Positions 4,953-35,117 of a DNA stretch of 64,000 bases are shown here, in pieces. The first letter of the stretch is position 1, and each line of letters opens with the position of its first letter. Position numbers and translations under genes: made by a program. Where the stretch lies: the sequence record OQ223305.1; one strand, given 5' to 3'. Under the pieces are notes generated by a model, which saw only the letters and a program-made list of their open reading frames with translations, was not told the DNA's origin and did no database searches. The stretch comes from Escherichia phage EO1.

Positions 4953-4956
4953 CTTG

Positions 4957-4985
4957 TTTACTTTAAGATTTGGATAGTATATAAT
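4957..4985 (+). promoter_or_regulatory. Early sigma70-type promoter for rnh (GTTTAC -35 region, TATAAT -10)
   Basis: TTTACT, 17-nt spacer, TATAAT at 4980-4985, ~30 nt before rnh ATG. Confidence 0.55.
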
Positions 4986-5014
4986 AGAAATCTCACTAAT
5001 TGAACGAGGTTCAT

Positions 5015-5932
5015 ATGGATTTAGAAATGATGCTGGATGAAGATTACAAAGAAGGAATTTGCTTTATTGACTTTAGTCAAATTGCGCTTTCAACTGCTTT
5101 GGTAAACTTTCCAGATAAAGAAAAAATTAATTTATCAATGGTTCGTCATTTGATATTGAACTCAATTAAGTTTAATGTCAAAAAAGCAAAAACTCTTGGA
5201 TACACTAAAATTGTACTGTGTATTGATAATGCGAAATCTGGATATTGGCGTCGTGATTTCGCGTATTATTATAAGAAAAACCGTGGAAAAGCACGAGAAG
5301 AATCTACTTGGGACTGGGAAGGTTATTTTGAATCCAGTCATAAAGTTATAGATGAATTGAAAGCTTATATGCCATACATTGTTATGGATATCGATAAGTA
5401 TGAAGCAGATGACCACATTGCTGTTCTTGTTAAAAAGTTCTCTTTAGAAGGACACAAGATTTTAATCATTTCATCTGATGGTGACTTTACTCAACTTCAC
5501 AAATATCCAAATGTTAAGCAATGGTCACCGATGCACAAGAAATGGGTTAAAATTAAAAGCGGTTCTGCTGAAATTGACTGTATGACTAAAATCCTTAAAG
5601 GCGATAAAAAGGATAACGTTGCTTCAGTTAAAGTACGATCTGACTTTTGGTTTACCAAAGTTGAAGGTGAACGAACTCCTTCAATGAAAACTTCAATCGT
5701 TGAAGCTATTGCTAATGACCGTGAGCAAGCTAAGGTGCTTCTCACAGAATCTGAATATAATCGTTATAAAGAAAATTTAGTTCTAATTGATTTTGATTAT
5801 ATTCCTGATAATATTGCTTCAAACATTGTGAATTACTATAATTCATATAAATTACCACCGCGTGGCAAAATTTATTCATATTTTGTAAAAGCGGGTCTTT
5901 CTAAATTAACTAATAGCATTAATGAATTTTGA
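5015..5932 (+). CDS. rnh: RNase H (5'-3' exonuclease / flap endonuclease)
   Basis: 305 aa, begins MDLEMMLDEDYKEG as remembered for T4 RNase H; GAGG RBS; the track's upstream TTG start rejected. Confidence 0.93.
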   Translation: MDLEMMLDEDYKEGICFIDFSQIALSTALVNFPDKEKINLSMVRHLILNSIKFNVKKAKTLGYTKIVLCIDNAKSGYWRRDFAYYYKKNRGKAREESTWDWEGYFESSHKVIDELKAYMPYIVMDIDKYEADDHIAVLVKKFSLEGHKILIISSDGDFTQLHKYPNVKQWSPMHKKWVKIKSGSAEIDCMTKILKGDKKDNVASVKVRSDFWFTKVEGERTPSMKTSIVEAIANDREQAKVLLTESEYNRYKENLVLIDFDYIPDNIASNIVNYYNSYKLPPRGKIYSYFVKAGLSKLTNSINEF

Positions 5933-9736: not shown

Positions 9737-9739
9737 TTG

Positions 9740-9768
9740 TTTACAACAGGGTAGTAGTGTGATACTAT
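9740..9768 (+). promoter_or_regulatory. Early promoter (TTTACA, 17 nt, TGaTACTAT)
   Basis: GTTTACA at 9739-9745, extended -10 at 9760-9768; inverted repeat 9749-9756/9766-9773 brackets the -10. Confidence 0.55.
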
Positions 9769-9794
9769 TACCCTATCAACTTGAGGAGAATAAA

Positions 9795-10037
9795 ATGAGA
9801 TTACAACGCCAGAGCATCAAAGATTCAGAAGTTAGAGGTAAATGGTATTTTAATATCATCGGTAAAGATTCTGAACTCATTGAAAAAGCTGAACATCTTT
9901 TACGTGATATGGGATGGGAAGATGAATGCGATGGATGTCCTCTTTATGAAGACGGAGAAAGCGCAGGATTCTGGATTTATCATTCTGACGTCGAGCAGTT
10001 TAAAGCTGATTGGAAAATTGTGAAAAAGTCTATTTGA
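9795..10037 (+). CDS. Hypothetical protein
   Basis: ATG 9795 preceded by GAGGAG RBS; 80 aa. Confidence 0.55.
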   Translation: MRLQRQSIKDSEVRGKWYFNIIGKDSELIEKAEHLLRDMGWEDECDGCPLYEDGESAGFWIYHSDVEQFKADWKIVKKSI

Positions 10038-11831: not shown

Positions 11832-12692
11832 ATGAAACAATACCAAGATTTAATTAAAAACATCCTTGAAAATGGTTATGAAACCGATGACCGAACGGGC
11901 ACAGGAACAATTGCTCTGTTCGGTACTAAATTGCGTTGGGATTTAACTAAAGGTTTTCCTGCAGTAACAACTAAAAAGCTCGCCTGGAATGCATGCATTG
12001 CTGAGCTAATATGGTTTTTATCAGGAAGCACAAATGTCAATGATTTGCGATTAATTCAACATGATTCATCAATTCAAGGCAAAACAGTCTGGGATGAAAA
12101 TTACGAAAATCAAGCAAAAGATTTAGGATACCATAGCGGTGAACTTGGTCCAATTTATGGAAAACAGTGGCGTGATTTTGGCGGTGTAGATCAAATTATA
12201 GAAGTTATTGATCGTATTAAAAAACTGCCAAATGATAGGCGTCAAATTGTTTCTGCGTGGAATCCAGCTGAACTTAAATATATGGCATTACCGCCTTGTC
12301 ATATGTTCTATCAGTTTAATGTGCGTAATGGATACCTTGACCTTCAGTGGTATCAACGTTCGGTAGATGTTTTCCTCGGTCTTCCATTTAATATTGCATC
12401 ATATGCTACGTTAGTTCATATTGTAGCTAAGATGTGTAATCTTATTCCGGGAGATTTGATATTTTCTGGTGGTAATACTCATATCTATATGAATCACGTA
12501 GAACAATGTAAAGAAATTTTATGTCGTGAACCTATGGATTTATGCGAATTACAATTAAAATTTCCAGATGAATTTGATGAATGGAACACAGAATCGCAGG
12601 TATTTTGGTTGAGTCAATTTGCAAAGCCTCATAATTTTGTTCTTAACAACTATGAATCACATCCTCCTATTAAAGGAAAGATGGCGGTGTAA
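11832..12692 (+). CDS. td: Thymidylate synthase, uninterrupted (no group I intron)
   Basis: 286 aa continuous ORF with conserved TS motifs (PPCH, ...[10 protein letters not shown] end). Confidence 0.93.
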
Positions 12693-13256: not shown

Positions 13257-15511
13257 TTAATGTTATCAAAAGTAGTGGTGTTTCTCAGAGCTTTGACCCA
13301 CAAAAAATTATTAAAGTTTTATCTTGGGCAGCTGAAGGAACATCTGTAGATCCTTATGAATTATATGAAAATATTAAATCATATCTCCGTGATGGAATGA
13401 CAACTGATGATATTCAGACTATTGTCATTAAGGCCGCTGCGAATTCTATTTCGGTTGAAGAACCTGATTATCAATATGTAGCTGCACGCTGTTTAATGTT
13501 TGCTCTTCGTAAGCATGTTTATGGGCAGTATGAACCACGTTCATTTATTGACCATATTTCTTACTGTGTAAATGAAGGTAAATATGACCCTGAATTATTG
13601 TCAAAATATTCAGCAGAAGAAATTACATTTTTAGAATCAAAAATTAAGCATGAGCGGGATATGGAATTTACTTATTCCGGGGCGATGCAATTAAAAGAAA
13701 AATATCTAGTTAAAGATAAAACCACTGGTCAAATTTATGAAACTCCACAGTTTGCATTTATGACTATTGGAATGGCATTGCATCAAGATGAACCTGTTGA
13801 TAGATTAAAACATGTTATTCGTTTTTATGAAGCAGTATCCACTCGACAGATTTCACTGCCAACTCCTATTATGGCTGGTTGCCGTACTCCAACTCGGCAG
13901 TTTAGTTCATGCGTTGTTATTGAGGCAGGTGATTCATTAAAGTCTATCAATAAGGCTTCCGCTTCAATTGTTGAATATATCTCTAAACGCGCTGGAATTG
14001 GTATTAACGTTGGTATGATTCGTGCTGAAGGTTCTAAGATTGGCATGGGTGAAGTACGCCATACTGGTGTTATTCCTTTTTGGAAACATTTTCAGACTGC
14101 TGTTAAATCATGTTCACAGGGTGGAATTCGTGGCGGCGCTGCTACTGCTTATTATCCTATTTGGCATTTGGAAGTTGAAAATCTTCTTGTTTTGAAAAAT
14201 AACAAAGGCGTAGAAGAAAACCGCATTCGTCATATGGATTATGGTGTTCAACTGAATGATTTGATGATGGAACGATTCGGAAAGAACGATTACATTACTT
14301 TGTTCAGTCCGCATGAAATGGGTGGAGAGCTTTATTATTCTTATTTTAAAGACCAAGACCGTTTCCGTGAATTATACGAAGCAGCAGAAAAAGACCCTAA
14401 TATTCGTAAAAAGCGTATTAAAGCCCGTGAACTATTTGAATTGCTCATGACTGAACGCTCAGGAACAGCAAGGATTTATGTGCAGTTCATTGATAATACG
14501 AATAACTATACTCCGTTTATTCGTGAAAAGGCACCTATTCGTCAGAGTAACTTGTGCTGTGAAATTGCTATTCCAACAAATGATGTGAATAGCTCTGATG
14601 CTGAAATTGGATTGTGCACGTTATCTGCATTTGTGCTGGATAACTTCGATTGGCAAGACCAAGATAAAATTAATGAATTAGCAGAAGTTCAAGTTCGTGC
14701 TCTTGATAATCTTTTGGATTACCAAGGATATCCAGTTCCTGAAGCAGAAAAAGCTAAAAAGCGTCGTAACCTCGGTATAGGTGTTACTAACTATGCAGCT
14801 TGGCTGGCAAGTAACTTTGCTTCTTATGAAGATGCTAACGATTTAACACATGAACTATTTGAGAGATTACAGTATGGACTCATTAAAGCATCCATTAAGC
14901 TCGCCAAAGAAAAAGGACCTTGCGAATATTATTCAGACACTCGTTGGTCTCGAGGCGAATTACCTATCGACTGGTACAATAAAAAGATTGACCAAATCGC
15001 AGCTCCAAAATACGTTTGTGACTGGTCGTCGCTGCGGGAAGACCTTAAGCTCTTTGGCATCCGTAATAGCACACTATCAGCACTTATGCCATGTGAGTCA
15101 TCTTCCCAAGTTTCTAACAGTACAAACGGTATCGAGCCTCCACGTGGACCAGTCTCTGTTAAAGAATCAAAAGAGGGCTCCTTTAATCAAGTCGTGCCCA
15201 ATATTGAGCATAACATAGACCTCTATGATTATACATGGAAATTAGCTAAGAAAGGTAATAAACCTTATCTTACGCAGGTAGCTATTATGCTAAAATGGGT
15301 TTGTCAATCAGCTTCGGCGAATACATATTATGACCCGCAGATTTTTCCAAAAGGAAAGGTTCCAATGTCTGTAATGATTGATGACATGCTATACGGATGG
15401 TATTATGGCATTAAAAACTTCTATTATCATAATACTCGTGATGGTTCCGGTACTGATGATTACGAAATAGAAACTCCAAAAGCCGATGATTGCGCAGCGT
15501 GTAAATTGTAA
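13247..15511 (+). CDS. nrdA: Ribonucleotide reductase large subunit
   Basis: 754 aa, class I RNR alpha with ATP-cone N-terminus. Confidence 0.93.
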   Translation: MQLINVIKSSGVSQSFDPQKIIKVLSWAAEGTSVDPYELYENIKSYLRDGMTTDDIQTIVIKAAANSISVEEPDYQYVAARCLMFALRKHVYGQYEPRSFIDHISYCVNEGKYDPELLSKYSAEEITFLESKIKHERDMEFTYSGAMQLKEKYLVKDKTTGQIYETPQFAFMTIGMALHQDEPVDRLKHVIRFYEAVSTRQISLPTPIMAGCRTPTRQFSSCVVIEAGDSLKSINKASASIVEYISKRAGIGINVGMIRAEGSKIGMGEVRHTGVIPFWKHFQTAVKSCSQGGIRGGAATAYYPIWHLEVENLLVLKNNKGVEENRIRHMDYGVQLNDLMMERFGKNDYITLFSPHEMGGELYYSYFKDQDRFRELYEAAEKDPNIRKKRIKARELFELLMTERSGTARIYVQFIDNTNNYTPFIREKAPIRQSNLCCEIAIPTNDVNSSDAEIGLCTLSAFVLDNFDWQDQDKINELAEVQVRALDNLLDYQGYPVPEAEKAKKRRNLGIGVTNYAAWLASNFASYEDANDLTHELFERLQYGLIKASIKLAKEKGPCEYYSDTRWSRGELPIDWYNKKIDQIAAPKYVCDWSSLREDLKLFGIRNSTLSALMPCESSSQVSNSTNGIEPPRGPVSVKESKEGSFNQVVPNIEHNIDLYDYTWKLAKKGNKPYLTQVAIMLKWVCQSASANTYYDPQIFPKGKVPMSVMIDDMLYGWYYGIKNFYYHNTRDGSGTDDYEIETPKADDCAACKL

Positions 15512-17447: not shown

Positions 17448-19035
<1,588 letters not shown>

Positions 19036-19039
19036 GCTG

Positions 19040-19068
19040 TTTACAAGTCTCTCGTGTTGTGTTACAAT
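19040..19068 (+). promoter_or_regulatory. Early promoter for alc (TTTACA, 17 nt, TGtTACAAT)
   Basis: GTTTACA at 19039-19045 and extended -10 at 19060-19068; nearly identical to the 34766-34795 promoter. Confidence 0.6.
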
Positions 19069-19096
19069 AGTCTTACTGACATAACATGAGGACTTT

Positions 19097-19603
19097 ATGA
19101 TGGATTTACAGCTTATTACTACTGAAATGGTCGTTGAAGCATACGGTGATACTACAGATGGGATTTCTGTATTTAAAGGAAATCGTCGAGTTGGATATAT
19201 CACCGATCTTAAGAAAGATTTAGCTAAGCAAGTCAAGCGGAAAACGACCATTAAAGAATATCGAAATCGTCGTCTTGAGCAAGCCCGTGATATGCTTCCT
19301 GATGCAGTTGAGGAGATGAAAGTCTTTTTAGAAAATCAACTCGCTAAGTATGATTGTGAAGTGTTTATTAATCAGACTCAACCTAATGTTCATATCAATA
19401 GCTGCAAATGCTATATCATCGTTAATCCTTTGACAGGAAAGCATCGTCTTGGAATTAGTAATCCAAATCGTAGCGCATCGGATATGGCAGAAGATGTTGC
19501 GGCGTGCTTTAAAATTTCTAAATCTCCGGCTGAACATCATATTTTAATTAACGGTCTTTCTCAAGACGATATTATAGAGGTTATTAAAACTTTATGCATG
19601 TAA
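19097..19603 (+). CDS. alc: Alc, inhibitor of host (cytosine-DNA) transcription
   Basis: 168 aa, position after gene 63 as in T4. Confidence 0.85.
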   Translation: MMDLQLITTEMVVEAYGDTTDGISVFKGNRRVGYITDLKKDLAKQVKRKTTIKEYRNRRLEQARDMLPDAVEEMKVFLENQLAKYDCEVFINQTQPNVHINSCKCYIIVNPLTGKHRLGISNPNRSASDMAEDVAACFKISKSPAEHHILINGLSQDDIIEVIKTLCM

Positions 19604-19947
19604 GTAATTTTACAGCTGGATTGCTATTACTTGTAATAGCATTTGGCGGAACATCTATTATTTTAAAAAATAAGGTAGAAAGATTAGAAACATCGGTTAC
19701 TGAAATTACAAAAACGGCCAATGAAAACGCTTTAGCATTAGATAATTTGCGAATTCAGTATAATTATATTGATGCGATGAATAATAAAAATCGTGAGGCA
19801 ATTGCTGCTATTGAGCGTGAAAATGAAAAACTGCGCAAAGATGCAAAGAAGGCGGATGTGGTGGCTCATAAGCCAGGATTGGTTGAAAAACAAATCAACA
19901 ACTCCTTCAACAAGTTCGCAGAAGACATCCAGGACCTTTCTAAATGA
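19594..19947 (+). CDS. Hypothetical membrane protein
   Basis: N-terminal hydrophobic segment FTAGLLLLVIAFGG, then coiled-coil-like region. Confidence 0.55.
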   Translation: MHVSNFTAGLLLLVIAFGGTSIILKNKVERLETSVTEITKTANENALALDNLRIQYNYIDAMNNKNREAIAAIERENEKLRKDAKKADVVAHKPGLVEKQINNSFNKFAEDIQDLSK

Positions 19948-20243
19948 TTAGACTATCAGCAGTAATATTATCTATCGGTCTTCTAGCTGGTTGTTCGACA
20001 AAGCCTCTAGAAGTAAAGAAAGAAACAGTTCATCCTAGTTGGCCTGTACAGATAAAGTCATATGACGAAGCTAAACTATCTTGGCAAGTTAAAGTTATTG
20101 ATGGTAAAGCTTGGGTAGGTATGCCATTTGAAGATTCTCAGGAATTTCGTATTTGGCTTAATGATGTAAAACGATATGTACATGATCAGAAAACTATGAT
20201 ATGTTATTATCGCCAAGAGTTAAAAGAGGATAAATGCAAATGA
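19944..20243 (+). CDS. Putative lipoprotein
   Basis: Signal peptide with lipobox LLAGC near the N-terminus. Confidence 0.55.
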   Translation: MIRLSAVILSIGLLAGCSTKPLEVKKETVHPSWPVQIKSYDEAKLSWQVKVIDGKAWVGMPFEDSQEFRIWLNDVKRYVHDQKTMICYYRQELKEDKCK

Positions 20244-20466
20244 TTTCATGGCATCAATTTGAACATCTCAAAGGATTGATTTATGAATCCGAGATGGCTG
20301 CAATGATTTACGGACGCCAGATTCAGCGGTTAGAATCTTTACCTCCAACTAATGATGTTTTATTAGCTCAATCACGCGCTAATCTCAAAAATGAATATCA
20401 AAATAAGTGGGGTAAAGCATCTAAAGACCTGCATGATTATATTCAATCATTGGTTGAGAAAAATAA

Positions 20467-20470
<4 letters not shown>
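20234..20470 (+). CDS. Hypothetical protein
   Basis: 78 aa ORF in the operon, overlapping stop/start. Confidence 0.5.
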
Positions 20471-21670
<1,200 letters not shown>

Positions 21671-21671
<1 letters not shown>

Positions 21672-21868
21672 TGGCTTTACATCATGAAACTTGGGCTATT
21701 ATTATTGTAAATAGTGGTTTAGTTGGTACTAGTAATGGACAATTTTGTGTATTCACTAGTGAAATCAGAGCTTGGGAGGAATGCCTTAAATTAAGGGAAA
21801 AGAATCCTGATGTTGAACTAACAGTAAAGAAAACTAAACTGCCTTTACCATGGAAAACTTATGAATAA
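21671..21868 (+). CDS. Hypothetical protein
   Basis: 65 aa ORF coupled to pseT stop. Confidence 0.45.
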
Positions 21869-22061
21869 CATAGAAAAGATTTATCAACTTTGTGATAAAA
21901 TTGAAAAAGAAAAGAAATATCTATTTTGTTTATGGCCTATTGTTGATGGAAGAATAGACTTAGATATTCTTGATTATGAAACAGAAGACATAGTAGATGG
22001 TTCAACTTTTGATAATGCGTTGGATGTTATTAATTGGCTTGAAGAAAATTATGTGGGGTGA
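21861..22061 (+). CDS. Hypothetical protein
   Basis: 66 aa ORF. Confidence 0.45.
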   Translation: MNNIEKIYQLCDKIEKEKKYLFCLWPIVDGRIDLDILDYETEDIVDGSTFDNALDVINWLEENYVG

Positions 22062-22339
22062 ATATGTTTCCGACTTATTCTAAAATCGTAGAAGTAGTGT
22101 TTAGCCAAATTATCGCTAATAACATGTTTGAAAAGCTTGATAATGCAGCTGAGCTTCGAATTCATGCTCAAGTGACTCATGTATTGAACACTTTGCTTCC
22201 AGACCAGGTGGATTCTATTGCAATTACGCTGTATCCAGGTTCCGCGCATATCATTGTCGTATTCGGTCTTGATGCTGAGCTAGTCATCAAAGGCGATATT
22301 CGTTTTGAATCGCAGACATCAGAATTCAAAGCAATTTAA
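22058..22339 (+). CDS. Hypothetical protein
   Basis: 93 aa ORF. Confidence 0.45.
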   Translation: MNMFPTYSKIVEVVFSQIIANNMFEKLDNAAELRIHAQVTHVLNTLLPDQVDSIAITLYPGSAHIIVVFGLDAELVIKGDIRFESQTSEFKAI

Positions 22340-22342
22340 TAG

Positions 22343-22371
22343 TTTACTTTACGGTAGAGTTGTGATATTAT
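22343..22371 (+). promoter_or_regulatory. Early promoter (TTTACT, 17 nt, TGaTATTAT)
   Basis: GTTTAC at 22342-22347; the -10 sits in the loop of inverted repeat ggtagag(22353-22359)/ctctacc(22374-22380). Confidence 0.55.
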
Positions 22372-22401
22372 AGCTCTACCAAAACAAATGAGGAAATTGA
22401 A

Positions 22402-22929
22402 ATGAGCGAATGGTTTGAAGAAGATAAGGTTTATCGCTTTAAAGCTGGATATAAAGATATTTTTAATGAAACTTGCGGGGCTAATAAACGAATTGCCCAG
22501 TTTATTGGGGAAAATTCATTTAAAGTAAAAATAGATCCTGCGAAAAATGTTATTAGCATTAAACGCGAAATTGATGATTGTTGGTATAAAGCTGTTGATG
22601 TAATGGGTGAATCCTATAAAGTTAGCCCGTTATTTTCAATTGCTTATATGTTAGAATATTCTTTTTTCGAAGAAGTTCAAAAAGATGATTCTACAAGTAA
22701 ATTTGAAATTAAAGCTGATAAAGAAATTAAGTGGAAAGTAGTAGGTATTACTGGTTGTATGTTCTATATCTATGCTCAAACTGATACGAAGGAAGAAGCT
22801 AAAAAGAAAGCTCTAGAATATCTTGAAGAGTATGAAGAAGGCCCGGTAATGATTACCCAAGATGCCGAATTAGTTTCTGTCAAATTAGTTAAAAACGTTG
22901 AAAGTAAGGAGCTGGGATCAACATGCTAA
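22402..22929 (+). CDS. Hypothetical protein
   Basis: 175 aa ORF with GAGGAAA RBS. Confidence 0.55.
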   Translation: MSEWFEEDKVYRFKAGYKDIFNETCGANKRIAQFIGENSFKVKIDPAKNVISIKREIDDCWYKAVDVMGESYKVSPLFSIAYMLEYSFFEEVQKDDSTSKFEIKADKEIKWKVVGITGCMFYIYAQTDTKEEAKKKALEYLEEYEEGPVMITQDAELVSVKLVKNVESKELGSTC

Positions 22930-23159
22930 GTGAAAAACCAATTACTACTAAAGAATTCCAAGAAAAAGTTAAACTATTTGCTCAGGAATTGGTAAATAAG
23001 GTTTCTGAACGATTTCCTGAAACATCGGTTCGTGTTATTACCGAAACTCCTCGTTCAGTATTAGTAATTGTGAATCCAGGTGATGGTGACCAAATAACAC
23101 ATCTTAAACTGGATTTTGATGGATTAGTTGAAGCACAAAGGGTGTATGGCGTACTATGA
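22923..23159 (+). CDS. Hypothetical protein
   Basis: 78 aa ORF. Confidence 0.45.
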   Translation: MLSEKPITTKEFQEKVKLFAQELVNKVSERFPETSVRVITETPRSVLVIVNPGDGDQITHLKLDFDGLVEAQRVYGVL

Positions 23160-23494
23160 TGAATTTAACTGATATAATTGATAATTGTCTTGAAAATGAT
23201 ACTGGCGATCATAGAGCGCTTGATTCTGAAACAGCACAGTTCATTAGAATAACTTTGATGAACGATACTCTAGTGAATAGTATTCATCCTTCTGTGTATG
23301 ATGCTATTATTGTGACGAAGTATCCAGTTGAGCTTCACAAAAAGATGGCTGGTGCAATTTTTATTGATAAGAAAAACCGCTTTAAAGATGGGCAGAATAT
23401 AATTAGTTCTGTTATTAAAAGTATAACTAAACTTCGTCACGAAATTTATCGTGTTGAAACTGCTAAATCTGCTTATCTGGTGATTATGAAATGA
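23156..23494 (+). CDS. Hypothetical protein
   Basis: 112 aa ORF. Confidence 0.45.
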   Translation: MMNLTDIIDNCLENDTGDHRALDSETAQFIRITLMNDTLVNSIHPSVYDAIIVTKYPVELHKKMAGAIFIDKKNRFKDGQNIISSVIKSITKLRHEIYRVETAKSAYLVIMK

Positions 23495-24072
23495 AAGCGA
23501 GTACAGTACTTCAAATTGCATATTTAGTATCACAAGAATCAAAATGTTGCTCCTGGAAGGTAGGAGCAGTAATTGAAAAGAATGGACGTATTATTTCTAC
23601 CGGATATAACGGTTCTCCGGCAGGTGGTGTGAACTGTTGTGATTATGCTGCTGAGCAAGGTTGGTTGTTGAATAAACCTAAACATACTATCATTCAAGGA
23701 CATAAGCCCGAATGTGTATCGTTTGGTTCAACTGATCGTTTTGTTTTGGCGAAAGAACACCGCAGCGCTCACTCTGAATGGTCGTCTAAAAATGAAATTC
23801 ATGCTGAACTAAATGCGATTTTGTTTGCTGCGCGAAATGGTTCTTCAATTGAAGGTGCTACTATGTATGTAACACTTTCTCCTTGCCCAGATTGTGCAAA
23901 AGCGATAGCTCAATCTGGTATTAAAAAGCTAGTTTATTGCGAAACATACGATAAAAATAAACCTGGCTGGGATGATATTCTGCGAAATGCGGGTATTGAA
24001 GTGTTTAATGTTCCTAAGAAAAACTTGAATAAGTTAAACTGGGAAAATATCAACGAATTCTGTGGTGAATAA
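23491..24072 (+). CDS. cd: dCMP deaminase
   Basis: 193 aa; cytidine/dCMP deaminase zinc motifs (HAE...PCxxC). Confidence 0.9.
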   Translation: MKASTVLQIAYLVSQESKCCSWKVGAVIEKNGRIISTGYNGSPAGGVNCCDYAAEQGWLLNKPKHTIIQGHKPECVSFGSTDRFVLAKEHRSAHSEWSSKNEIHAELNAILFAARNGSSIEGATMYVTLSPCPDCAKAIAQSGIKKLVYCETYDKNKPGWDDILRNAGIEVFNVPKKNLNKLNWENINEFCGE

Positions 24073-24308
24073 TGAAATTTCGTTTGGTACAACTCACAGC
24101 AATTAGTTCTTATTCTAACGAGAACATTTCATTTGCTGTAGAGTATAAGAAATATTTTTTCTCTAAATGGAAGCAGTATTATAAGTCAGAATGGGTTTGT
24201 ATTGATAGACCGTATAGTTGGAAATCTGATTTAGAAAAATGCCAAAAATTGCTTTCCACTCTTAAAGAACGTGGAACAACCCATATTAAAACTGTGATAG
24301 GTAAATAA
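24072..24308 (+). CDS. Hypothetical protein
   Basis: 78 aa ORF. Confidence 0.45.
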   Translation: MKFRLVQLTAISSYSNENISFAVEYKKYFFSKWKQYYKSEWVCIDRPYSWKSDLEKCQKLLSTLKERGTTHIKTVIGK

Positions 24309-24617
24309 ATGAAACTGACGACTGAGCAAAAAGTAGCAATTCGTGAAATTTTGAAAACTAAATTGTCCATGGGTATTTCAAATGTAGTTTTTGAAAAGTC
24401 TGATGGTACTATTCGTACTATGAAAGGCACTCGTGATGCAGACTTTATGCCAACCATGCAAACCGGTAAATTGACTGAATCTACTCGGAAAGAATCTACT
24501 GATATGATTCCGGTATTTGATGTTGAGCTTGGTGCATGGCGAGGTTTTTCTATTGACAAATTGATTTCAGTTAATGGCATGAAAGTTGAGCATTTGCTTC
24601 AATTTATTGGTAAATAA
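24309..24617 (+). CDS. Hypothetical protein
   Basis: 102 aa ORF. Confidence 0.5.
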   Translation: MKLTTEQKVAIREILKTKLSMGISNVVFEKSDGTIRTMKGTRDADFMPTMQTGKLTESTRKESTDMIPVFDVELGAWRGFSIDKLISVNGMKVEHLLQFIGK

Positions 24618-24619
24618 AT

Positions 24620-24644
24620 GCTTTAAGAATTATTTGTTATTATT
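24620..24644 (+). promoter_or_regulatory. MotA-dependent middle promoter for gene 31
   Basis: MotA box TGCTTTA (24620-24626), 12-nt spacer, TATTAT -10 (24639-24644). Confidence 0.55.
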
Positions 24645-24673
24645 AATTCATCTGTTAACAAAAAGGAAAAACG

Positions 24674-25009
24674 ATGTCTGAAGTACAACAGCTACCAATT
24701 CGTGCTGTCGGTGAATATGTTATTTTAGTTTCTGAACCTGCACAAGCCGGTGATGAAGAAGTTACAGAATCAGGACTTATTATCGGTAAACGTGTTCAAG
24801 GTGAAGTTCCTGAACTGTGTGTAATTCACTCTGTTGGTCCTGATGTTCCTGAAGGTTTCTGTGAAGTTGGTGATTTGACTTCTCTTCCAGTTGGTCAAAT
24901 TCGAAACGTTCCGCATCCTTTTGTAGCCCTAGGTCTTAAGCAGCCAAAAGAAATTAAACAAAAATTTGTTACCTGTCACTATAAAGCTATTCCGTGTCTT
25001 TATAAGTGA
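24674..25009 (+). CDS. 31: Co-chaperonin gp31 (GroES analogue for capsid folding)
   Basis: 111 aa, same length and position as T4 gp31. Confidence 0.9.
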
Positions 25010-25017
25010 TATAAATA
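25010..25017 (+). promoter_or_regulatory. Late promoter core TATAAATA upstream of rIII
   Basis: Exact TATAAATA immediately after gene 31 stop, ~120 nt before rIII ATG. Confidence 0.5.
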
Positions 25018-25135
25018 ATAATATGAATTGAGTTTCAATTCTATGTGGTAGTCTACAACTGAGAGATCTGTCGAAAGAAGATGAAATTCAGAAGAACGTG
25101 ACTACCGAGTTTTAATCTCTAACGAGAATTTTTAA

Positions 25136-25384
25136 ATGATTAAACAATTACAACACGCTCTTGAACTGCAACGAAACGCATGGAATAATGGTCACGAAAA
25201 CTATGGCGCATCTATTGATGTTGAAGCCGAAGCTCTTGAAATCCTGCGTTATTTCAAACATCTGAATCCTGCTCAAACTGCATTAGCTGCTGAGCTTCAG
25301 GAAAAAGATGAACTTAAATATGCTAAGCCTCTGGCTTCTGCCGCACGAAAAGCAGTTCGTCACTTTGTGGTAACACTGAAGTAA
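25136..25384 (+). CDS. rIII: rIII lysis inhibition accessory protein
   Basis: 82 aa, same length and position as T4 rIII. Confidence 0.85.
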   Translation: MIKQLQHALELQRNAWNNGHENYGASIDVEAEALEILRYFKHLNPAQTALAAELQEKDELKYAKPLASAARKAVRHFVVTLK

Positions 25385-25578
25385 TTTATTGGAGATTCAC
25401 TGCCTTAGTGTGAGCTAAAATCGAGGAGCCGTCGAACTTTGTTTTACGGTGTACCTCTTGAATGTTGACGAGGTTTATGGTTATCCTGTCGGTAAATACT
25501 CAAAACCTATGTTCCCCTTGAGGGCTTGCGCAGGCAATGCCAATAAGTCCTGCATTTTCATTTAAAAGAGAATTTATA

Positions 25579-25755
25579 ATGGCAAAACAAGTTAAAGCAA
25601 AGAAAGCAGTTGAAAAGAAAGTTGGTGATTCTAAACGCGCTGGTTACAAGCGTGGGTCGAACTCTCGTATCAATCAAACTGTTGAGAAGATCATGCGCCG
25701 AGCACGTGCGGTTCTTCGAGATGATGCTTCTCGTTTTGGTAAGCAGAAAGCATAA
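25579..25755 (+). CDS. Hypothetical small basic protein
   Basis: 58 aa from ATG 25579 (MAKQVKAKK...); the track's longer ORF from 25537 lacks an RBS; followed by a strong terminator. Confidence 0.5.
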   Translation: MAKQVKAKKAVEKKVGDSKRAGYKRGSNSRINQTVEKIMRRARAVLRDDASRFGKQKA

Positions 25756-25759
25756 GTTG

Positions 25760-25789
25760 AGGACTCCTTCGGGAGTCCTTTTTTATTTT
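25760..25789 (+). terminator. Rho-independent terminator
   Basis: aggactcc-ttcg-ggagtcct hairpin followed by tttttatttt. Confidence 0.8.
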
Positions 25790-25809
25790 CCAAAGATTGC
25801 ACAAAGTTG

Positions 25810-25838
25810 TTTACAGTATGGTTCCTTTGTGATAGTAT
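25810..25838 (+). promoter_or_regulatory. Early promoter (TTTACA, 17 nt, TAGTAT)
   Basis: GTTTACA at 25809-25815; inverted repeat cctttgt(25824-25830)/acaaagg(25851-25857) brackets the -10 and overlaps the RBS. Confidence 0.5.
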
Positions 25839-25865
25839 TATCTTACACAAACAAAGGAGAATAAA

Positions 25866-26198
25866 ATGAAAACGATTAATCTGAACGCTACAGTTAAAAC
25901 TAAATGCTTCAATGGTAAATATGATGAAACTATGTGGTTCTTAATGGCAGTTGAAGGTGATATTATTGAAGTAGAAACAACAGAAGGTATGGGAACAGAT
26001 TTCACCTTTACAATTCAAGTTCATAATTTCTTTACTGGTTGGATTTATGAATTGAATACAGTAATCGTTGGAAAAATTGAACAAAATGAATTAGGCGAAT
26101 GGTATTATGTTACAGCTCGCCAACGTGCAGAACGCTTAATTGAGAAGATGAAAAAAGTTGGTAAACTTGACATGCAGCACTGGAAAGTAGTAAAATAA
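25866..26198 (+). CDS. Hypothetical protein
   Basis: 110 aa with AAGGAG RBS. Confidence 0.55.
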   Translation: MKTINLNATVKTKCFNGKYDETMWFLMAVEGDIIEVETTEGMGTDFTFTIQVHNFFTGWIYELNTVIVGKIEQNELGEWYYVTARQRAERLIEKMKKVGKLDMQHWKVVK

Positions 26199-26201
26199 TT
26201 G

Positions 26202-26229
26202 TTTACTTTGGTACAGGATATGATATTAT
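26202..26229 (+). promoter_or_regulatory. Early promoter (TTTACT, 16 nt, TGaTATTAT)
   Basis: GTTTAC at 26201-26206; -10 in the loop of inverted repeat ggtacagg(26210-26217)/cctgtacc(26233-26240). Confidence 0.55.
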
Positions 26230-26266
26230 ATACCTGTACCGCAATTAAACATCTCGGAGAATAAAA

Positions 26267-26632
26267 ATGAACTACATTAACTTTGAACGTAAATATGTTT
26301 CTAATGGTATTGCAGGTTCTATTGATACTATCTGCCTTTGGAAACATCAAAATGGATCAGTATGCGAAATTGAACAGTATATGACTCCTAACTACGTTTA
26401 TATGCGATTTGAAAATGGCATCACGGTTTCAATCACGAAAGAAGGTTCTTCTTTTAAAATCGCATTAGATGATGATTTCCGTCAACGCGATTTAGGTACT
26501 CATCCTTGCTGGAATGGCGTCAATCGTAAGCTTCTGGTTAAAACTTGGATTCGTCATATTCTGAGTAACAGAGCTAAACCTGAGCATCTTGAAGCGATCT
26601 TTGATGTAGTTCTTAACGAATTTGATATTTAA
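26267..26632 (+). CDS. Hypothetical protein
   Basis: 121 aa with GGAGAA RBS. Confidence 0.55.
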   Translation: MNYINFERKYVSNGIAGSIDTICLWKHQNGSVCEIEQYMTPNYVYMRFENGITVSITKEGSSFKIALDDDFRQRDLGTHPCWNGVNRKLLVKTWIRHILSNRAKPEHLEAIFDVVLNEFDI

Positions 26633-26641
26633 AATAAAATG

Positions 26642-26657
26642 AGGGGCTTCGGCCCCT
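26642..26657 (+). other. Intercistronic UUCG-tetraloop hairpin (stability or processing element; not a clear terminator)
   Basis: aggggc-ttcg-gcccct with no downstream T-run; RBS follows directly. Confidence 0.45.
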
Positions 26658-26673
26658 TACTGAGGAAAATACT

Positions 26674-26961
26674 ATGTTTATGACTACTTATTTTGATACC
26701 CGTAAAAATTTCTGTGAAGTGGTTTTCTCAAAGGCGCCTAAAGGCCTTCCTGCTCATTTGCAACCTACCAGTGAATCGATTAAAAACTATGTTAATGCAG
26801 TCTGCCCTTTAGAGTTCCGTACTGTAAATGGGCGTGATACTCTAGCTATCGCTAAACTCAATCGTGAAATTGACATTGACCCTTCAATTGCGCGTGAAAT
26901 TAACATTTCTGATATTGACGGCGGTAATGTTAAATCGCATGGTTTTCAGATGAGGTTCTAA
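26674..26961 (+). CDS. Hypothetical protein
   Basis: 95 aa with GAGG RBS. Confidence 0.55.
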   Translation: MFMTTYFDTRKNFCEVVFSKAPKGLPAHLQPTSESIKNYVNAVCPLEFRTVNGRDTLAIAKLNREIDIDPSIAREINISDIDGGNVKSHGFQMRF

Positions 26962-27158
26962 TGAAATTCTTTTTGGGTCAAACTGTTGAATTAAAGGGAG
27001 TTGGTATACCTGGATTAATTTCTAAGGTTCTACCTCCATTTAAATGGAGTGGTATTCAAATAAAAGAGGCTTATATTGTTTCCTGGGTAGATGGAAATGA
27101 AGACCTTCGTATGGGTGATGAATTATCTCCTATTTACGGATTAAAGGAATTAGTATGA
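26961..27158 (+). CDS. Hypothetical protein
   Basis: 65 aa, ATGA coupling. Confidence 0.45.
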   Translation: MKFFLGQTVELKGVGIPGLISKVLPPFKWSGIQIKEAYIVSWVDGNEDLRMGDELSPIYGLKELV

Positions 27159-30588: not shown

Positions 30589-30611
30589 GAATAAACACTA
30601 GAGAGGATATG

Positions 30612-32705
30612 ATGGAACTCATTACAGAATTATTTGACGAAGATACTACTCTTCCGATTACAAACTTAAATCCAAAGAAGAAAATACCACAAATTTTTTC
30701 AGTTCATGTTGATGATGCAATTGAACAACCAGGCTTTCGTTTATGTACCTATACATCTGGAGGTGATACTAATCGTGATTTAAAGATGGGCGATAAAATG
30801 ATGCATATTGTTCCTTTTACATTAACTGCTAAAGGTTCAATTGCTAAATTAAAAGGTCTTGGTCCAAGCCCGATTAATTATATCAATTCAGTTTTTACTG
30901 TTGCAATGCAAACAATGCGTCAATATAAAATTGATGCCTGTATGCTTCGTATTCTTAAGTCTAAAACTGCTGGCCAAGCTCGACAAATTCAAGTTATTGC
31001 TGATAGACTTATCCGTAGTCGTTCAGGTGGTAGATACGTCCTTCTTAAGGAACTCTGGGATTACGATAAAAAGTATGCATATATTCTTATACATCGCAAA
31101 AATGTATCACTAGAAGACATTCCAGGAGTTCCGGAAATTAGTACCGAGCTCTTTACTAAAGTTGAATCGAAAGTCGGTGATGTTTATATCAATAAAGATA
31201 CTGGAGCCCAAGTAACTAAAAATGAGGCAATTGCAGCATCAATTGCACAAGAAAATGATAAACGTTCTGACCAAGCCGTAATCGTTAAAGTTAAAATTTC
31301 CCGTAGAGCAATTGCACAAAGTCAGTCATTGGAATCTTCTAGATTTGAAAGTGAATTATTCCAGAAGTATGAATCTACAGCAGCTAATTTTAATAAACCA
31401 GCTACTGCACCTTTAATTCCCGAAGCAGAAGAAATGAAAATTGGAATTAATTCATTAGCTTCTAAAACAAAGGCAGCAAAAATTATTGCTGAAGGAACGG
31501 CAAATGAACTTCACTATGATTATAAATTCTTTCCAATGAGTCAAGTCGGTGAAGTTTCAGAAAAAATTAAAGAAGTAATTTTTAATGCAATTAAAAATGA
31601 ACCAACTACTTCAATAAAATGTTTAGAGAAATACGCAGCAGCTGTAAATCAATTCTTTGAAGATTATAAAGATAAATGGCTTGCTAATCATAATAAAAAT
31701 CGTAAAGGACAACCAGATGAAGTCTGGGAAGAAATAACTAAAAATTCCTGGAACGCAGCAAAAACTAAATTCCTCAAACGAATGATTTACAGTTTTTCTG
31801 GAATTGGTTCTGGTCCAATGATTGATATTACTATTGCCCGCGATGGTTCTAAATATACTCCATCACAAAAGCGTGGCATTAGAGAATATTGCGGTTCAGG
31901 ATATACTGACATCAATAATCTTCTTTTAGGTCGTTACAATCCAGAACGATATGATGTAATGAGTGAAAAAGAAATTGAATCTGCTATAAATAACTTAGAT
32001 TCAGCTTTTGAAAATGGTGACCGTATACCAGAAGGCATTACAGTTTATCGTGCTCAAAGTATGACTGCTCCTATATATGAAGCGTTAGTTAAAAATAAAG
32101 TGTTCTATTTCAGAAATTTTGTATCTACTTCTTTAACTCCTATCATTTTTGGGCGTTTTGGAATTACACATGCTGGTATTGGTCTTTTAGAACCAGAAGC
32201 TCGTAACGAATTGACAGTTGATAAAAATGAAGAAGGAATAACTATTAATCCAAACGAAATAAGAGCGTATAAAGAAAATCCTGAATACGTTAAAGTTCAA
32301 ATAGGATGGGCAATTGATGGAGCTCATAAAGTTAATGTTGTATATCCAGGAAGTCTCGGAATAGCAACAGAAGCTGAAGTTATTCTACCACGAGGATTGA
32401 TGGTCAAAGTTAATAAAATAACTGATGCTTCTAATAATGACGGAACAACATCTAATAATACAAAACTCATTCAAGCTGAAGTTATGACTACGGAAGAACT
32501 CACCGAATCAGTAATTTATGACGGTGACCGTCTAATGGAAACTGGTGAAGTAGTTGCAATGACAGGTGATATTGAAATAGAAGACAGAGTTGACTTTGCA
32601 TCATTTGTTTCATCAAATGTTAAACAGAAAGCAGAATCATCTCTCGGAATTATTGCGTCTTGCATAGATATTACAAACATGCCTTACAAGTTCGTTCAAG
32701 GATAA
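30612..32705 (+). CDS. alt: Alt-type ADP-ribosyltransferase (copy 1)
   Basis: 697 aa; N-terminus MELITELFDEDTTLPITNL; R-S-ExE ART motifs (YRAQ, FVSTSL, EAEVILPRG). Confidence 0.85.
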   Translation: MELITELFDEDTTLPITNLNPKKKIPQIFSVHVDDAIEQPGFRLCTYTSGGDTNRDLKMGDKMMHIVPFTLTAKGSIAKLKGLGPSPINYINSVFTVAMQTMRQYKIDACMLRILKSKTAGQARQIQVIADRLIRSRSGGRYVLLKELWDYDKKYAYILIHRKNVSLEDIPGVPEISTELFTKVESKVGDVYINKDTGAQVTKNEAIAASIAQENDKRSDQAVIVKVKISRRAIAQSQSLESSRFESELFQKYESTAANFNKPATAPLIPEAEEMKIGINSLASKTKAAKIIAEGTANELHYDYKFFPMSQVGEVSEKIKEVIFNAIKNEPTTSIKCLEKYAAAVNQFFEDYKDKWLANHNKNRKGQPDEVWEEITKNSWNAAKTKFLKRMIYSFSGIGSGPMIDITIARDGSKYTPSQKRGIREYCGSGYTDINNLLLGRYNPERYDVMSEKEIESAINNLDSAFENGDRIPEGITVYRAQSMTAPIYEALVKNKVFYFRNFVSTSLTPIIFGRFGITHAGIGLLEPEARNELTVDKNEEGITINPNEIRAYKENPEYVKVQIGWAIDGAHKVNVVYPGSLGIATEAEVILPRGLMVKVNKITDASNNDGTTSNNTKLIQAEVMTTEELTESVIYDGDRLMETGEVVAMTGDIEIEDRVDFASFVSSNVKQKAESSLGIIASCIDITNMPYKFVQG

Positions 32706-32708
32706 ATC

Positions 32709-34766
32709 ATGGAACTTATTACAGAATTATTTGACGGCGCTTCGGCGCCGGTTGTTAACTTAAATCCTAAGCATAAAATACCTCAAATTTTTGCTATTCA
32801 AGCCGGTGAAGAAAGCGTGCTTCCTGGATTTAGATTTTGTACATACACCTCTGGCGGTGATACAAATAAAAACGTTAAGCCAGGCGATAAAATGATGCAT
32901 ATCGTAATGATAGGTGTCAATGAGAAACTATCATTAGTTAAACTTAAAAACTTGGGTGGAAATCCAATTGGTGTTATTAATGCGGTTTTTGATACTGCTC
33001 TTCAAACAATGAAACAGTATAAAATTGACGCATGCCTGTTCCGCGTACTAAAGAGTAAAACAAATGGCGCAGCTCGACAAATTCAAGTTATTGCTGACCG
33101 TTTAGTACGTACTAAAGGAGCAGGTCGATATGTTCTTTTAAAGGAAATCTGGGATTACGATAAAAAGTATGCATATATTATGGTTTACCGTAAAAATGCC
33201 AATTTAGAAGACATTCCAGGTGTACCTCCTATTTCAACTGAGTTATTCACAAAAGTTGAATCAAAGGTTGGTGATGTTTATGTAGACGTTAAAACAGGTA
33301 ATGCTGTTCCTAAAGCTGTTGCTGTTGCCGCTTCTATTGCTTTAGAAAATGATAAGCGCACGGATCAAGCTGTTATTCAGAAAACTAAAATTAGTCGTCG
33401 ATTAGCAGCACAAGCTCAATACTCTACTGTCGATGCTTCACTTCAGGGCGATAGTTTCGCTGCTAAGAAATATCAAGAGTTTGAATCTAAAGTTCCGGTA
33501 TATAAAGCAGAAGGACCAATGAACTCTGGCGTTATTCAGATTGGTTCAAACTTCGGCAAAGGAGCTATCGGTGGTATGAGGAGTGCTTCTCGTTTTAAAT
33601 CTAGTGATTATGAACTAGAAAGCTTCCGAAATCATATTGCATTGGCCCATGCGCGTTTACGTGATCCATCTATTAAATTACAGAGCGATATAACATATCA
33701 AGGTTCTCAGGAATATTTAAAGAATAAAGAATTTTTTGATTATAAAACTGATAAAATTTTAAGCGATCTTGCTGACATTAATATTTCTAATAGCTTTGAT
33801 GTTATTAAGAAAATTGTCAATGATTTAGTTAAAGGTTCTAAAGCCACGCCAGATGAAAAGGTAGCTATTATTCAATTTGTCATGAATGGCATTTATAAAT
33901 TGATTAATGAGTCTGCTTCTCAAGCGTATGAATATGCAAGTACTGAAGTACCCCCAAAAGGATTAACTCGGGCTGAGTCTGATGTAATTGAAGATTATTG
34001 CGCAGATTCATATGTTGAAATGAACTCGTTCCTTTTAGGTAAACCGGATTCTACTCGTGAAGAATATATGGAACGAGCTATTAAACACATCGAGACGATG
34101 GATTCTGCTTTTGCCAAAGGATCAGTTCTTCCTCCAGGAACTACGCTTTACCGTGGCCAAGAAGTTACCTTTAAAACTTTACGTCATAATATTGAAAATA
34201 AAATGTTCTATTTTAAGAACTTCGTATCCACATCGCTTAAACCAAATATCTTCGGTGAGTATGGTAAAAACTATATGACTCTAGATGATTCCAGTGCAGT
34301 ATTTTCTGGTGAAGGAGAAGGTTCAATTGACGCAGAAGATTTGATGCATATGGGCAGTCATTCTGCTTATGCGAATGAAGATGCTGAAACTAGCGTGGGT
34401 ATGGTAATTAAAGGAGCTGAGCGAATCAAAGTTATCGTTCCGGGTCATTTATCAGGATTTCCGTCAGAAGCTGAAGTTATTTTACCACGTGGAATTTTGC
34501 TGAAGATTAATAAAGTGAGCACGTACATGATGAAAGAAACTGCTTATAACAAGTATTTAATCGAAGGTACAATCGTTCCTCCTTCTGAACAATTAGAAGA
34601 ATCGGTATATGATGGCGATCATCTGATGGAAACTGGTGAAGTTCGTCCAATGGCTGGATTTAATCAATTCCTTGTAGAAGAATCAAAAGAAGAGGAAAAC
34701 GAAGTTTCTCAAATCTTGGCTTCTTTGGTTAACATCAACGGAATGTCTAAAAAGTTCAAAATGTAG
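32709..34766 (+). CDS. Alt-family ADP-ribosyltransferase paralog (copy 2)
   Basis: 685 aa; collinear with copy 1 (MELITELFDG...; YRGQ, FVSTSL, EAEVILPRG). Confidence 0.8.
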   Translation: MELITELFDGASAPVVNLNPKHKIPQIFAIQAGEESVLPGFRFCTYTSGGDTNKNVKPGDKMMHIVMIGVNEKLSLVKLKNLGGNPIGVINAVFDTALQTMKQYKIDACLFRVLKSKTNGAARQIQVIADRLVRTKGAGRYVLLKEIWDYDKKYAYIMVYRKNANLEDIPGVPPISTELFTKVESKVGDVYVDVKTGNAVPKAVAVAASIALENDKRTDQAVIQKTKISRRLAAQAQYSTVDASLQGDSFAAKKYQEFESKVPVYKAEGPMNSGVIQIGSNFGKGAIGGMRSASRFKSSDYELESFRNHIALAHARLRDPSIKLQSDITYQGSQEYLKNKEFFDYKTDKILSDLADINISNSFDVIKKIVNDLVKGSKATPDEKVAIIQFVMNGIYKLINESASQAYEYASTEVPPKGLTRAESDVIEDYCADSYVEMNSFLLGKPDSTREEYMERAIKHIETMDSAFAKGSVLPPGTTLYRGQEVTFKTLRHNIENKMFYFKNFVSTSLKPNIFGEYGKNYMTLDDSSAVFSGEGEGSIDAEDLMHMGSHSAYANEDAETSVGMVIKGAERIKVIVPGHLSGFPSEAEVILPRGILLKINKVSTYMMKETAYNKYLIEGTIVPPSEQLEESVYDGDHLMETGEVRPMAGFNQFLVEESKEEENEVSQILASLVNINGMSKKFKM

Positions 34767-34795
34767 TTTACAAGTCCCTCGTGTTGTGTTATAAT
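34767..34795 (+). promoter_or_regulatory. Early promoter (TTTACA, 17 nt, TGtTATAAT)
   Basis: GTTTACA at 34766-34772 and TATAAT at 34790-34795; ~54-nt near-identical copy of the alc promoter and leader. Confidence 0.6.
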
Positions 34796-34826
34796 AATCT
34801 TACTGACATAACATGAGGAACACAAA

Positions 34827-35117
34827 ATGAAATCTTCTTTGCGCTTTTTAGGTCAAGAACTTGTAGTTGAAGGCGTTATTCCTGCTGATAATGCTTTTAA
34901 TGAAGCAGTTTATGATGAATTTATCAAAATTTTTGGAACAGATAAAAAGTTCGGAATTTTTCCTTCTGAAAATTTTTCAAAGCCAGAGCAGACTGAAAGC
35001 ATTTTCCAAGGTGTAGTAACAGGTAAATTTGAGTCAGAAGCTCCGGTAAAAATTGAAGTTTATATTGAAGACAGTTTAGTTGCTTCAGTTGCTGCTTTTA
35101 TTTCATTCCGTAAATAA
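34827..35117 (+). CDS. Hypothetical protein
   Basis: 96 aa with GAGGAA RBS. Confidence 0.55.
   Translation: MKSSLRFLGQELVVEGVIPADNAFNEAVYDEFIKIFGTDKKFGIFPSENFSKPEQTESIFQGVVTGKFESEAPVKIEVYIEDSLVASVAAFISFRK

Follow-up and report, generated by a model that had tools for sequence, protein, structure and literature searches.

The four inverted repeats that surround early promoters in the window, that is, the whole 64,000-nucleotide stretch of Escherichia phage EO1 analysed here (OQ223305.1), match published PeSL-type cassettes and do not form a new class; the element is already known. They are probably T4-type early-promoter cassettes of this published kind with a built-in RNA hairpin, and their correct filing as PeSL-type cassettes is the main value of the analysis. 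Beyond the PeSL papers, as far as the accessible text of these goes, we add hairpin-blind statistics in T4, an asymmetry in favour of the sense strand, and a split between hairpins that spare the SD and hairpins that cover it, all of them computational.

Early-promoter cassettes of the window

The window is a segment of a Tequatrovirus (T4-like) genome, with up to ~97% identity to hundreds of Tequatrovirus genomes. Its orientation is opposite to that of the standard T4 map, and its early genes lie on the plus strand. The pattern GTTTAC-N17/18-TGnTAnnAT has six matches in the window against 0.11 expected, and the rnh promoter at 4956, detected by a looser promoter scan, brings the strong early promoters to seven. 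All of these are intergenic and are followed by an SD and an ATG, and six of the seven contain an embedded hairpin, the exception being the rnh promoter.

The first-pass annotation had claimed four inverted repeats, and all four are present to the exact base, each inside an early promoter of this pattern. Its assignment of the repeats to four promoters was too narrow, since the promoters at 19039 and 34766 also carry hairpins (~-22 kcal/mol), which are the two strongest by dG. Its placement of the -10 element in the loop holds in that the repeats bracket the -10, but as RNA at 9739 and 22342 most of the -10 lies in the stem. The RNA stems are longer than the 7–8 bp repeats, with G.U pairs carrying them into TGn and the -10; at 9739 and 22342 they comprise 12 bp with a loop of 3–4 nt.

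The hairpins adopt two geometries. In class A, the right arm lies directly 3' of the -10, ~5–18 nt counted from the hexamer start, where it straddles the expected start site and leaves the SD free. The promoters at 22342, 9739 and 26201 belong to this class, as do the T4 dmd, mobD.2, ipI, ipII and motB promoters. In class B, the SD itself forms the right arm, which lies 16–30 nt after the start of the -10. This class comprises the promoters at 25809, 19039 and 34766 and the T4 regB, denV, motB.2 and nrdC.8 promoters. Read-through RNAs were folded from the -35 to the start codon, and z-scores were calculated against dinucleotide shuffles.

The focal cassette (22342..22404, plus strand) has a -35 element GTTTAC at 22342–22347, a TG at 22363–22364 and a -10 element TATTAT at 22366–22371. 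Its arms, ggtagag (22353–22359) and ctctacc (22374–22380), are part of a full RNA stem of 12 bp (22353–22364/22369–22380) with loop AUAU (dG -16.3 kcal/mol, z -3.7). The right arm ends before the SD GAGGA (22390–22394), which precedes the ATG at 22402, placing the cassette in class A. The promoter is the orthologue of the T4 early promoter Pe133295, located between cd.3 and cd.2, and the T4 orthologue is identical. T4 homology ends right after the SD, and the window has an extra 175-aa ORF (22402–22929) directly 3' of the cassette, between the promoter and the cd.2 homologue; T4 is without an ORF at this position. The ORF has no match in Pfam, and in PHROGs it matches only the unknown-function family phrog_3710. 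Among the features of one related record that fall under the match is a 'putative homing endonuclease', a designation to which domain searches give no support.

A second class A cassette (9739..9797, plus strand) has its -35 at 9739–9744, TG at 9760–9761 and -10 TACTAT at 9763–9768. The arms gggtagta (9749–9756) and tattaccc (9766–9773), which include one G.T, lie within a 12-bp RNA stem (9748–9759/9763–9774) with two G.U pairs and loop UGA (dG -15.2 kcal/mol, z -2.2), and are followed by the SD GAGGAG (9783–9788) and the ATG at 9795. The early promoter of the 30.7 homologue (26201..26269, plus strand; -35 26201–26206, TG 26221–26222, -10 TATTAT 26224–26229) is also of class A. Its arms ggtacagg (26210–26217) and cctgtacc (26233–26240) are contained in a hairpin predicted for 26201–26250 (dG -19.4 kcal/mol, z -4.8), and the SD GGAG (26256–26259) and the ATG at 26267 lie beyond it.

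The early promoter of the 30.8 homologue (25809..25868, plus strand; -35 25809–25814, TG 25830–25831, -10 TAGTAT 25833–25838) belongs to class B. Its arms cctttgt (25824–25830) and acaaagg (25851–25857) overlap the AAGGAG, and the stem 25822–25830/25851–25859 covers this SD (25854–25859) ahead of the ATG at 25866 (dG -12.1 kcal/mol, z -1.7). The T4 counterparts of the 25809 and 26201 promoters have the same arms as the window, and the counterpart of 25809 differs in one base, which lies outside the stem. Phage LH2 (151–242) has the 25809 cassette with 100% identity along 92 nt, and the similarity is lost completely at 16 nt within the downstream ORF. The LH2 ORF is without an annotated gene, and the site has the appearance of a recombination junction slightly within the gene.

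The two remaining class B cassettes are copies of each other. The promoter at 19039..19099 (plus strand; -35 19039–19044, -10 TACAAT 19063–19068) precedes a 168-aa ORF, putatively alc from its position and length, and the promoter's stem (19045–19064/19077–19095; dG -22.2 kcal/mol, z -4.0) covers the SD GAGGA (19087–19091) upstream of the ATG at 19097. The promoter at 34766..34829 (plus strand; -35 34766–34771, -10 TATAAT 34790–34795) lies downstream of alt-like genes, and its stem (34774–34794/34800–34821; dG -21.4 kcal/mol, z -4.9) covers the SD GAGGA (34815–34819) upstream of the ATG at 34827. The segments 19039–19092 and 34766–34819 represent a duplicated 54-nt cassette that reaches exactly from the -35 to the SD, with 51 of 54 positions identical. 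These paralogous copies have unrelated downstream genes and unrelated flanks, and their single difference within the arms exchanges a C-G for a U.G pair. Upstream of the second copy are two tandem genes for Alt-like RNA polymerase ADP-ribosyltransferases (30609–32705 and 32709–34766; 698 and 685 aa, 41% identical), the first of which matches phrog_802. In T4, a single alt gene is known.

The rnh early promoter (4956..5018, plus strand) is the negative case. It has a 6-bp A/T repeat, agattt/aaatct, and its fold does not go beyond that of shuffles (dG -5.6 kcal/mol, z +0.76). It is also the sole strong promoter of the window without a same-strand upstream gene; the gene upstream, gene 34, is divergent, and no read-through RNA is therefore expected at this site. 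The sole hairpin-free strong promoter is thus the sole one without read-through RNA, which agrees with an RNA-based model, albeit as a single case.

None of the promoter-embedded hairpins is followed by a U-tract, and a terminator scan of 19000–27000 lists none of these hairpins, although it does list a true terminator at 25759–25780. We therefore rejected their identity as intrinsic terminators. The true terminator is canonical (25759..25790, plus strand; GAGGACTCCTTCGGGAGTCCTT followed by a T-run) and lies just upstream of the 25809 promoter. A test of whether embedded hairpins and upstream terminators are alternatives gave a trend, in which the hairpins behind a real terminator are weaker without reaching significance (n = 5, p 0.15). 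A nearly identical terminator stem-loop (GGACTCCTTCGGGAGTCC and a T-run) precedes both the 25809 promoter and the T4 promoter at 15288, in different genome regions, and terminators too may travel as cassettes.

Excess complementarity, strand asymmetry and conservation

For statistical analysis we used 39 promoters picked blind to hairpins, 7 from the window and 32 from T4, which were called by motif and given assumed start sites; as the set includes paralogous copies, the effective sample is smaller than 39. Complementarity was tested between the spacer and a downstream segment that begins with the fourth -10 base and reaches to the start codon. The longest Watson–Crick stem has a mean of 6.15 bp for own pairs and 4.46 bp for swapped pairs (z 10.4; 39 promoters). 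Stems of at least 7 bp are formed by 14 of 39 own pairs but by only 3.4% of swapped pairs, and stems of at least 8 bp by 8 of 39 and 0.9%, respectively. The duplex energy is -11.7 kcal/mol for own and -7.0 kcal/mol for swapped pairs (z -11.5), and for 16 of 39 promoters the own partner ranks first of 39.

When only the free bases were shuffled (400 times), 7 bp or more was reached by 1.46 ± 1.16 promoters and by no more than 6, compared with the 14 of 39 observed. For the window, with the promoter elements held fixed and the spacers and downstream leaders shuffled, 3.6% of promoters formed a stem of 7 bp or longer; such stems arose in three or more of the seven promoters in 5 of 3000 shuffles. 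The first-pass annotation had set such a shuffle control beforehand, on the understanding that equally frequent 7–8 bp repeats would speak against its proposal; the repeats are far more frequent in the real promoters (z ~10). Chance complementarity in short A/T-rich sequence accounts well for the agattt/aaatct repeat at 4956, which is at chance level, and 6-bp stems do occur in 14% of swapped pairs. As an explanation of the hairpins in general it is refuted by the shuffle and swap controls (z ~10; 14 of 39 observed against 1.5 expected; three or more of seven window promoters in 5 of 3000 shuffles), and we assign it a negligible probability.

A strong hairpin is found in 20 of 39 promoters, approximately half, where ~4% would be expected. 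The other 19 of 39 are without one, indicating that the hairpin is not required for promoter function. For RB69 alone, the comparison gives p = 0.07 (n = 10), a weak replication due in part to the swap control, which cancels pairing to the shared SD. A hairpin-blind promoter pattern run over viral contigs returned mostly single chance matches in unrelated contigs and was not used.

The two strands of the strong hairpins are not equivalent. Of 20 strong hairpins, 17 are more stable as the sense than as the antisense strand, and none shows the opposite order. The difference between sense and antisense is -2.43 kcal/mol for own pairs compared with -1.04 kcal/mol for swapped pairs (p < 5e-5). A cruciform would be equal on both strands, whereas a G.U pair of an RNA hairpin becomes an A.C mismatch on the opposite strand. 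The bias towards the sense strand exceeds the composition bias and thus suggests selection on the mRNA-sense strand, i.e., on read-through RNA. On the basis of these sequences, the asymmetry points to an RNA hairpin in read-through transcripts rather than a DNA cruciform.

To follow the stems through evolution, we used an annotated phage collection, as protein-anchored orthologue scans of viral and metagenome contigs returned 9, 6 and 4 loci that were mostly near-identical. The focal-site alignment contains eight orthologues from Tequatro-, Mosig- and Dhakavirus and one unclassified phage. Within the 12-bp stem, 95.8% of cells are paired, and sliding the partner by 1–3 columns lowers pairing to 24–65%. 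Three pairs at 22342 are changed on both sides, a level reached by 3 of 500 shuffles. The first-pass annotation had proposed comparing relatives for compensatory changes of this kind. The Dhakavirus copy (GGTAGGACT/AGTCCTACC) differs from T4 (GGTAGAGTT/AGCTCTACC) by A-U to G-C, G-C to A-U and U.G to C-G, and Mosigvirus copies have the wobble changes A-U to G.U and U.G to U-A. It should be noted that the three double changes are adjacent and belong to one lineage, and they may represent a single event.

Upstream of 30.8, the arms are TTCCTTTGT/ACAAAGGAG in T4-type phages, TCTCCGGT/ACTGGAGA in JS98-type phages, where a different cassette replaces the T4-type one, and TTCTCC/GGAGAA in EcS1, and in all three cases they pair with the SD. 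The T4 paralogues dmd and mobD.2 differ in their promoters by a C-G to U-A change and by changes from G.U to Watson–Crick pairs. Tequatro-, Mosig-, Gapriver- and Dhakavirus all share the 26201 arms (GGTACAGG/CCTGTACC) unchanged, although their leaders differ, as do the loop bases outside the -10; one metagenomic copy has a C to U change that gives a G.U pair. In sequence terms, this invariance is constraint and not covariation, and it is silent as to whether structure or sequence is constrained. The earlier proposal that arms differ while complementarity is kept, as expected under selection for structure, is borne out by the excess of own over swapped pairs (z ~10) and by the compensatory changes in orthologues. 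An operator of a sequence-specific dimeric protein was rejected, given that the arms differ between promoters.

A promoter of Klebsiella phage K65 (61–135) combines class A and class B in one cassette: the -10 is enclosed by an inner stem, agggctat/atagccct, and further out the spacer sequence tttcctc pairs with the SD gagga.

SD accessibility and a possible function in read-through RNA

Across the 39 promoters, the predicted unpaired fraction from SD to AUG is 0.43 in read-through RNA and 0.66 in local RNA. Because a longer RNA always pairs more, the control consisted of chimeric read-through RNAs whose upstream half was foreign. Against this control the difference is weakly significant (own 0.429 versus foreign 0.467, p 0.028; 39 promoters), and the ranks of the own sequences cluster at both extremes. 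SD occlusion as a general function was rejected, as the chimeric control shrinks the effect to p 0.028, and it was kept for a subset.

At 25809, the predicted unpaired fraction is 0.37 in read-through RNA, 0.83 in local RNA and 0.59 with a foreign upstream half (own SD-occlusion rank 6 of 39), and at 19039 it is 0.24 with the own and 0.41 with a foreign upstream half (rank 4 of 39). The focal promoter is neutral (own 0.43, foreign 0.47), and the SD is not occluded at 9739 (own 0.60, foreign 0.46; rank 32 of 39) and is freer at 26201 (own 0.79, foreign 0.55). In the spacers, anti-SD sequences are enriched, being present in 9 of 39 against a genomic background of 7.1% (p 0.0014), and in 5 of 39, 6 nt or more of the spacer can pair with the promoter's own SD region, compared with 2.2% (p 0.0017).

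These predictions agree with the claim that the repeat at 25824–25857 occludes the ribosome-binding site: the stem covers AAGGAG, and the unpaired fraction falls from 0.83 in local to 0.37 in read-through RNA. The parallel that had been drawn with T4 lysozyme control fits this site, but the hairpins at 22342, 9739 and 26201 leave the ribosome-binding site untouched. On the predicted folds, the translational reading holds for a minority of promoters, and the focal site is not among them.

That the hairpins form in vivo, where the transcripts start, and all that is set out below on function are inferred from these data. The only bases of a cassette that are free to vary are the spacer between -35 and -10 and the stretch after the -10, and the two are kept complementary to each other. 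The hairpin would form solely in read-through RNA. Local RNA would start ~7 nt after the -10 and, if so, the absence of the left arm from local transcripts, as originally suggested, follows from the geometry. In class B, where the right arm is the SD, read-through RNA would be poorly translatable at the gene concerned and GGAG would be shielded, tying expression to the brief firing of the local early promoter. In class A, the hairpin would most likely mark the cistron boundary in long transcripts, 10–20 nt past the upstream stop codon, where it might cause pausing or attenuation or hold up 3'-exonucleases.

A more far-reaching model, which we regard as possible but doubtful, treats early-promoter hairpins as a genome-wide RNA device that would tell read-through RNA from local RNA. 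In about a quarter of cases the spacer would double as an anti-SD, so that the gene would be translated only from its own immediate-early promoter and GGAG would be hidden from RegB in longer transcripts. The anti-SD reading of the spacer is not described in the accessible text of the T4 post-transcriptional review (PMC3014915) or of the PeSL papers searched. If true, the principle known from e, soc, 49 and I-TevI with their late promoters would hold for early ones as well, and the spacer would gain a post-transcriptional function. Should the SD-covering hairpins act as predicted, the switch-off of some immediate-early genes despite continuing upstream transcription would be accounted for, with regB as an example of a tightly limited product.

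Known elements and alternative explanations

PeSLs are described by Arbiol et al. 2010 (PMC2839356) for RB49/phi1 and by Comeau et al. 2014 (PMC4122927) for PST/T4 and nt-1/KVP40, as far as the accessible text of both papers shows; in that text, Arbiol et al. credit Repoila et al. 1994 with seeing such stem-loops at T-even IP loci. The same portion of PMC2839356 reports that one RB49/phi1 stem-loop lowered downstream lacZ like a strong terminator, that PeSL cassettes recombine and thereby shuffle small genes, and that PeSL mini-circles were demonstrated in RB49/phi1. The catalogue of PST/T4 PeSLs in the accessible part of PMC4122927 gives the promoter as TTTACW-N17-TAYWAT.

The cassettes of the window resemble PeSLs in several respects, a link to published elements that the first-pass annotation had missed. 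Both are intergenic and consist of an A/T-rich upstream region, a strong early promoter, a stem-loop, an SD and a start codon. Both have G-T pairs in the stem, which is usually located between -35 and -10 or overlaps the -10 box. The T-even type shares the T4 early promoter TTTACW-N17-TAYWAT and weaker, A/T-richer stems of variable sequence, and both kinds occupy sites where gene content differs between related genomes. In our set, a strong early promoter lies between same-strand early genes and is followed by an SD and a start codon, the stem-loop lies within or overlaps the promoter and is enriched over controls, and repeated cassettes coincide with insertions, deletions and replacements. 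The differences lie in the proposed role. The papers describe a terminator or attenuator and a recombination site, whereas the sites here are without a U-tract. The accessible text of the papers is silent on translation, SD pairing and strand asymmetry, and the words 'translation' and 'read-through' do not occur in the accessible text of Arbiol et al. (PMC2839356).

Gating of translation by a hairpin that contains a promoter is established for T4 e (lysozyme), soc, 49 and I-TevI, and RNA structure is known to shield GGAG from RegB (PMC3014915). In these gates, the left arm lies upstream of the local start and the right arm comprises the SD/AUG; long transcripts are silent and only locally started ones are translated. 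The class B cassettes at 25809, 19039 and 34766 have the same arrangement, with the SD/AUG paired to a segment upstream of the start, which is not the case at 22342, 9739 and 26201. In contrast to the known gates, which belong to late promoters and delay expression, the promoters here are early, and the effect would confine expression to the first minutes. Class A, including the focal site, differs in never touching the SD. The promoter-embedded hairpins share with intrinsic terminators and 3' stabilising stem-loops between cistrons a stable stem-loop 10–20 nt past the upstream stop codon, but the U-tract seen at 25759–25790 has no equivalent after any of them.

In the original PeSL idea, the repeat is a DNA-level recombination module that promotes cassette exchange and shuffles small genes, and the RNA hairpin would be a by-product. 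We consider this unlikely, although exchange is well in line with the end of T4 homology right after the SD at 22342 and the extra 175-aa ORF there, with LH2, which is identical over the 92-nt 25809 cassette and diverges 16 nt into the gene, and with the duplication of the 54-nt cassette at 19039/34766 in front of unrelated genes. Also, JS98-type phages have another cassette upstream of 30.8, many phages match the query in promoter segments only, and mini-circles are reported for RB49/phi1 in the accessible text of PMC2839356. Nevertheless, exchange needs the conserved promoter sequence alone and not an internal repeat with cassette-specific arms. A cruciform is strand-symmetric, yet G.T(U) pairs consistently give the sense strand the better pairing, and homology-driven exchange does not explain the compensatory and wobble changes in the arms within orthologues. 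Recombination is compatible with the explanation by RNA hairpins, and the two are not exclusive. It is improbable that the repeat instead tunes the promoter through DNA melting, RNA polymerase contacts or the response to Alt/ModA, with the -10 in an extruded or easily opened loop. The arms differ wholly between equally good promoters, half of the promoters have none, and the right arms of class B, 16–30 nt past the start of the -10, are outside the open-complex bubble. Stems of 7–8 bp with loops of 9–20 nt are also short for cruciform extrusion, and the strand asymmetry favours RNA. Such tuning would be consistent with the arms at 26201, whose conservation across genera equals that of the -35 and -10, and with a review of T4 early transcription (PMC2988021) that mentions no hairpins but describes extra conserved promoter positions, the determinants of Alt stimulation being unknown.

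Still more improbable in our view is a mutational by-product, in which a templated strand-switch (quasi-palindrome) during T4 replication makes or perfects inverted repeats without selection. The adjacent multi-base change in both Dhakavirus arms could be one templated event, and an earlier T4 sequence had the loop between the arms inverted, so strand-switching does occur there, at least in cloning or sequencing. However, templated correction gives perfect, strand-symmetric repeats and explains neither the excess of G.U over A.C on the sense strand nor the preference for SD pairing, nor the fixed placement around the -10 and the conservation across four genera. Selection on an RNA hairpin in read-through transcripts remains our preferred reading of these features.

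The inverted loop is documented in the T4 record AF158101. A note states that positions 133300–133313 (orthologous to 22360–22373 of the window) are the inverted complement of the earlier sequence and that this corrects Pe133295. The 14 corrected T4 bases, ttgtgatattatag, are exactly the loop between ggtagag and ctctacc, so that the earlier sequence had the loop with the -10 flipped. The flip may have arisen as an artefact of strand-switching at the hairpin, or cloning may have selected an inversion that kills this strong promoter.

Elsewhere in the window, an uninterrupted 286-aa ORF (11832–12692) occupies what we take to be the td position; judging by length and position only, the phage may be without the td intron and I-TevI of T4.
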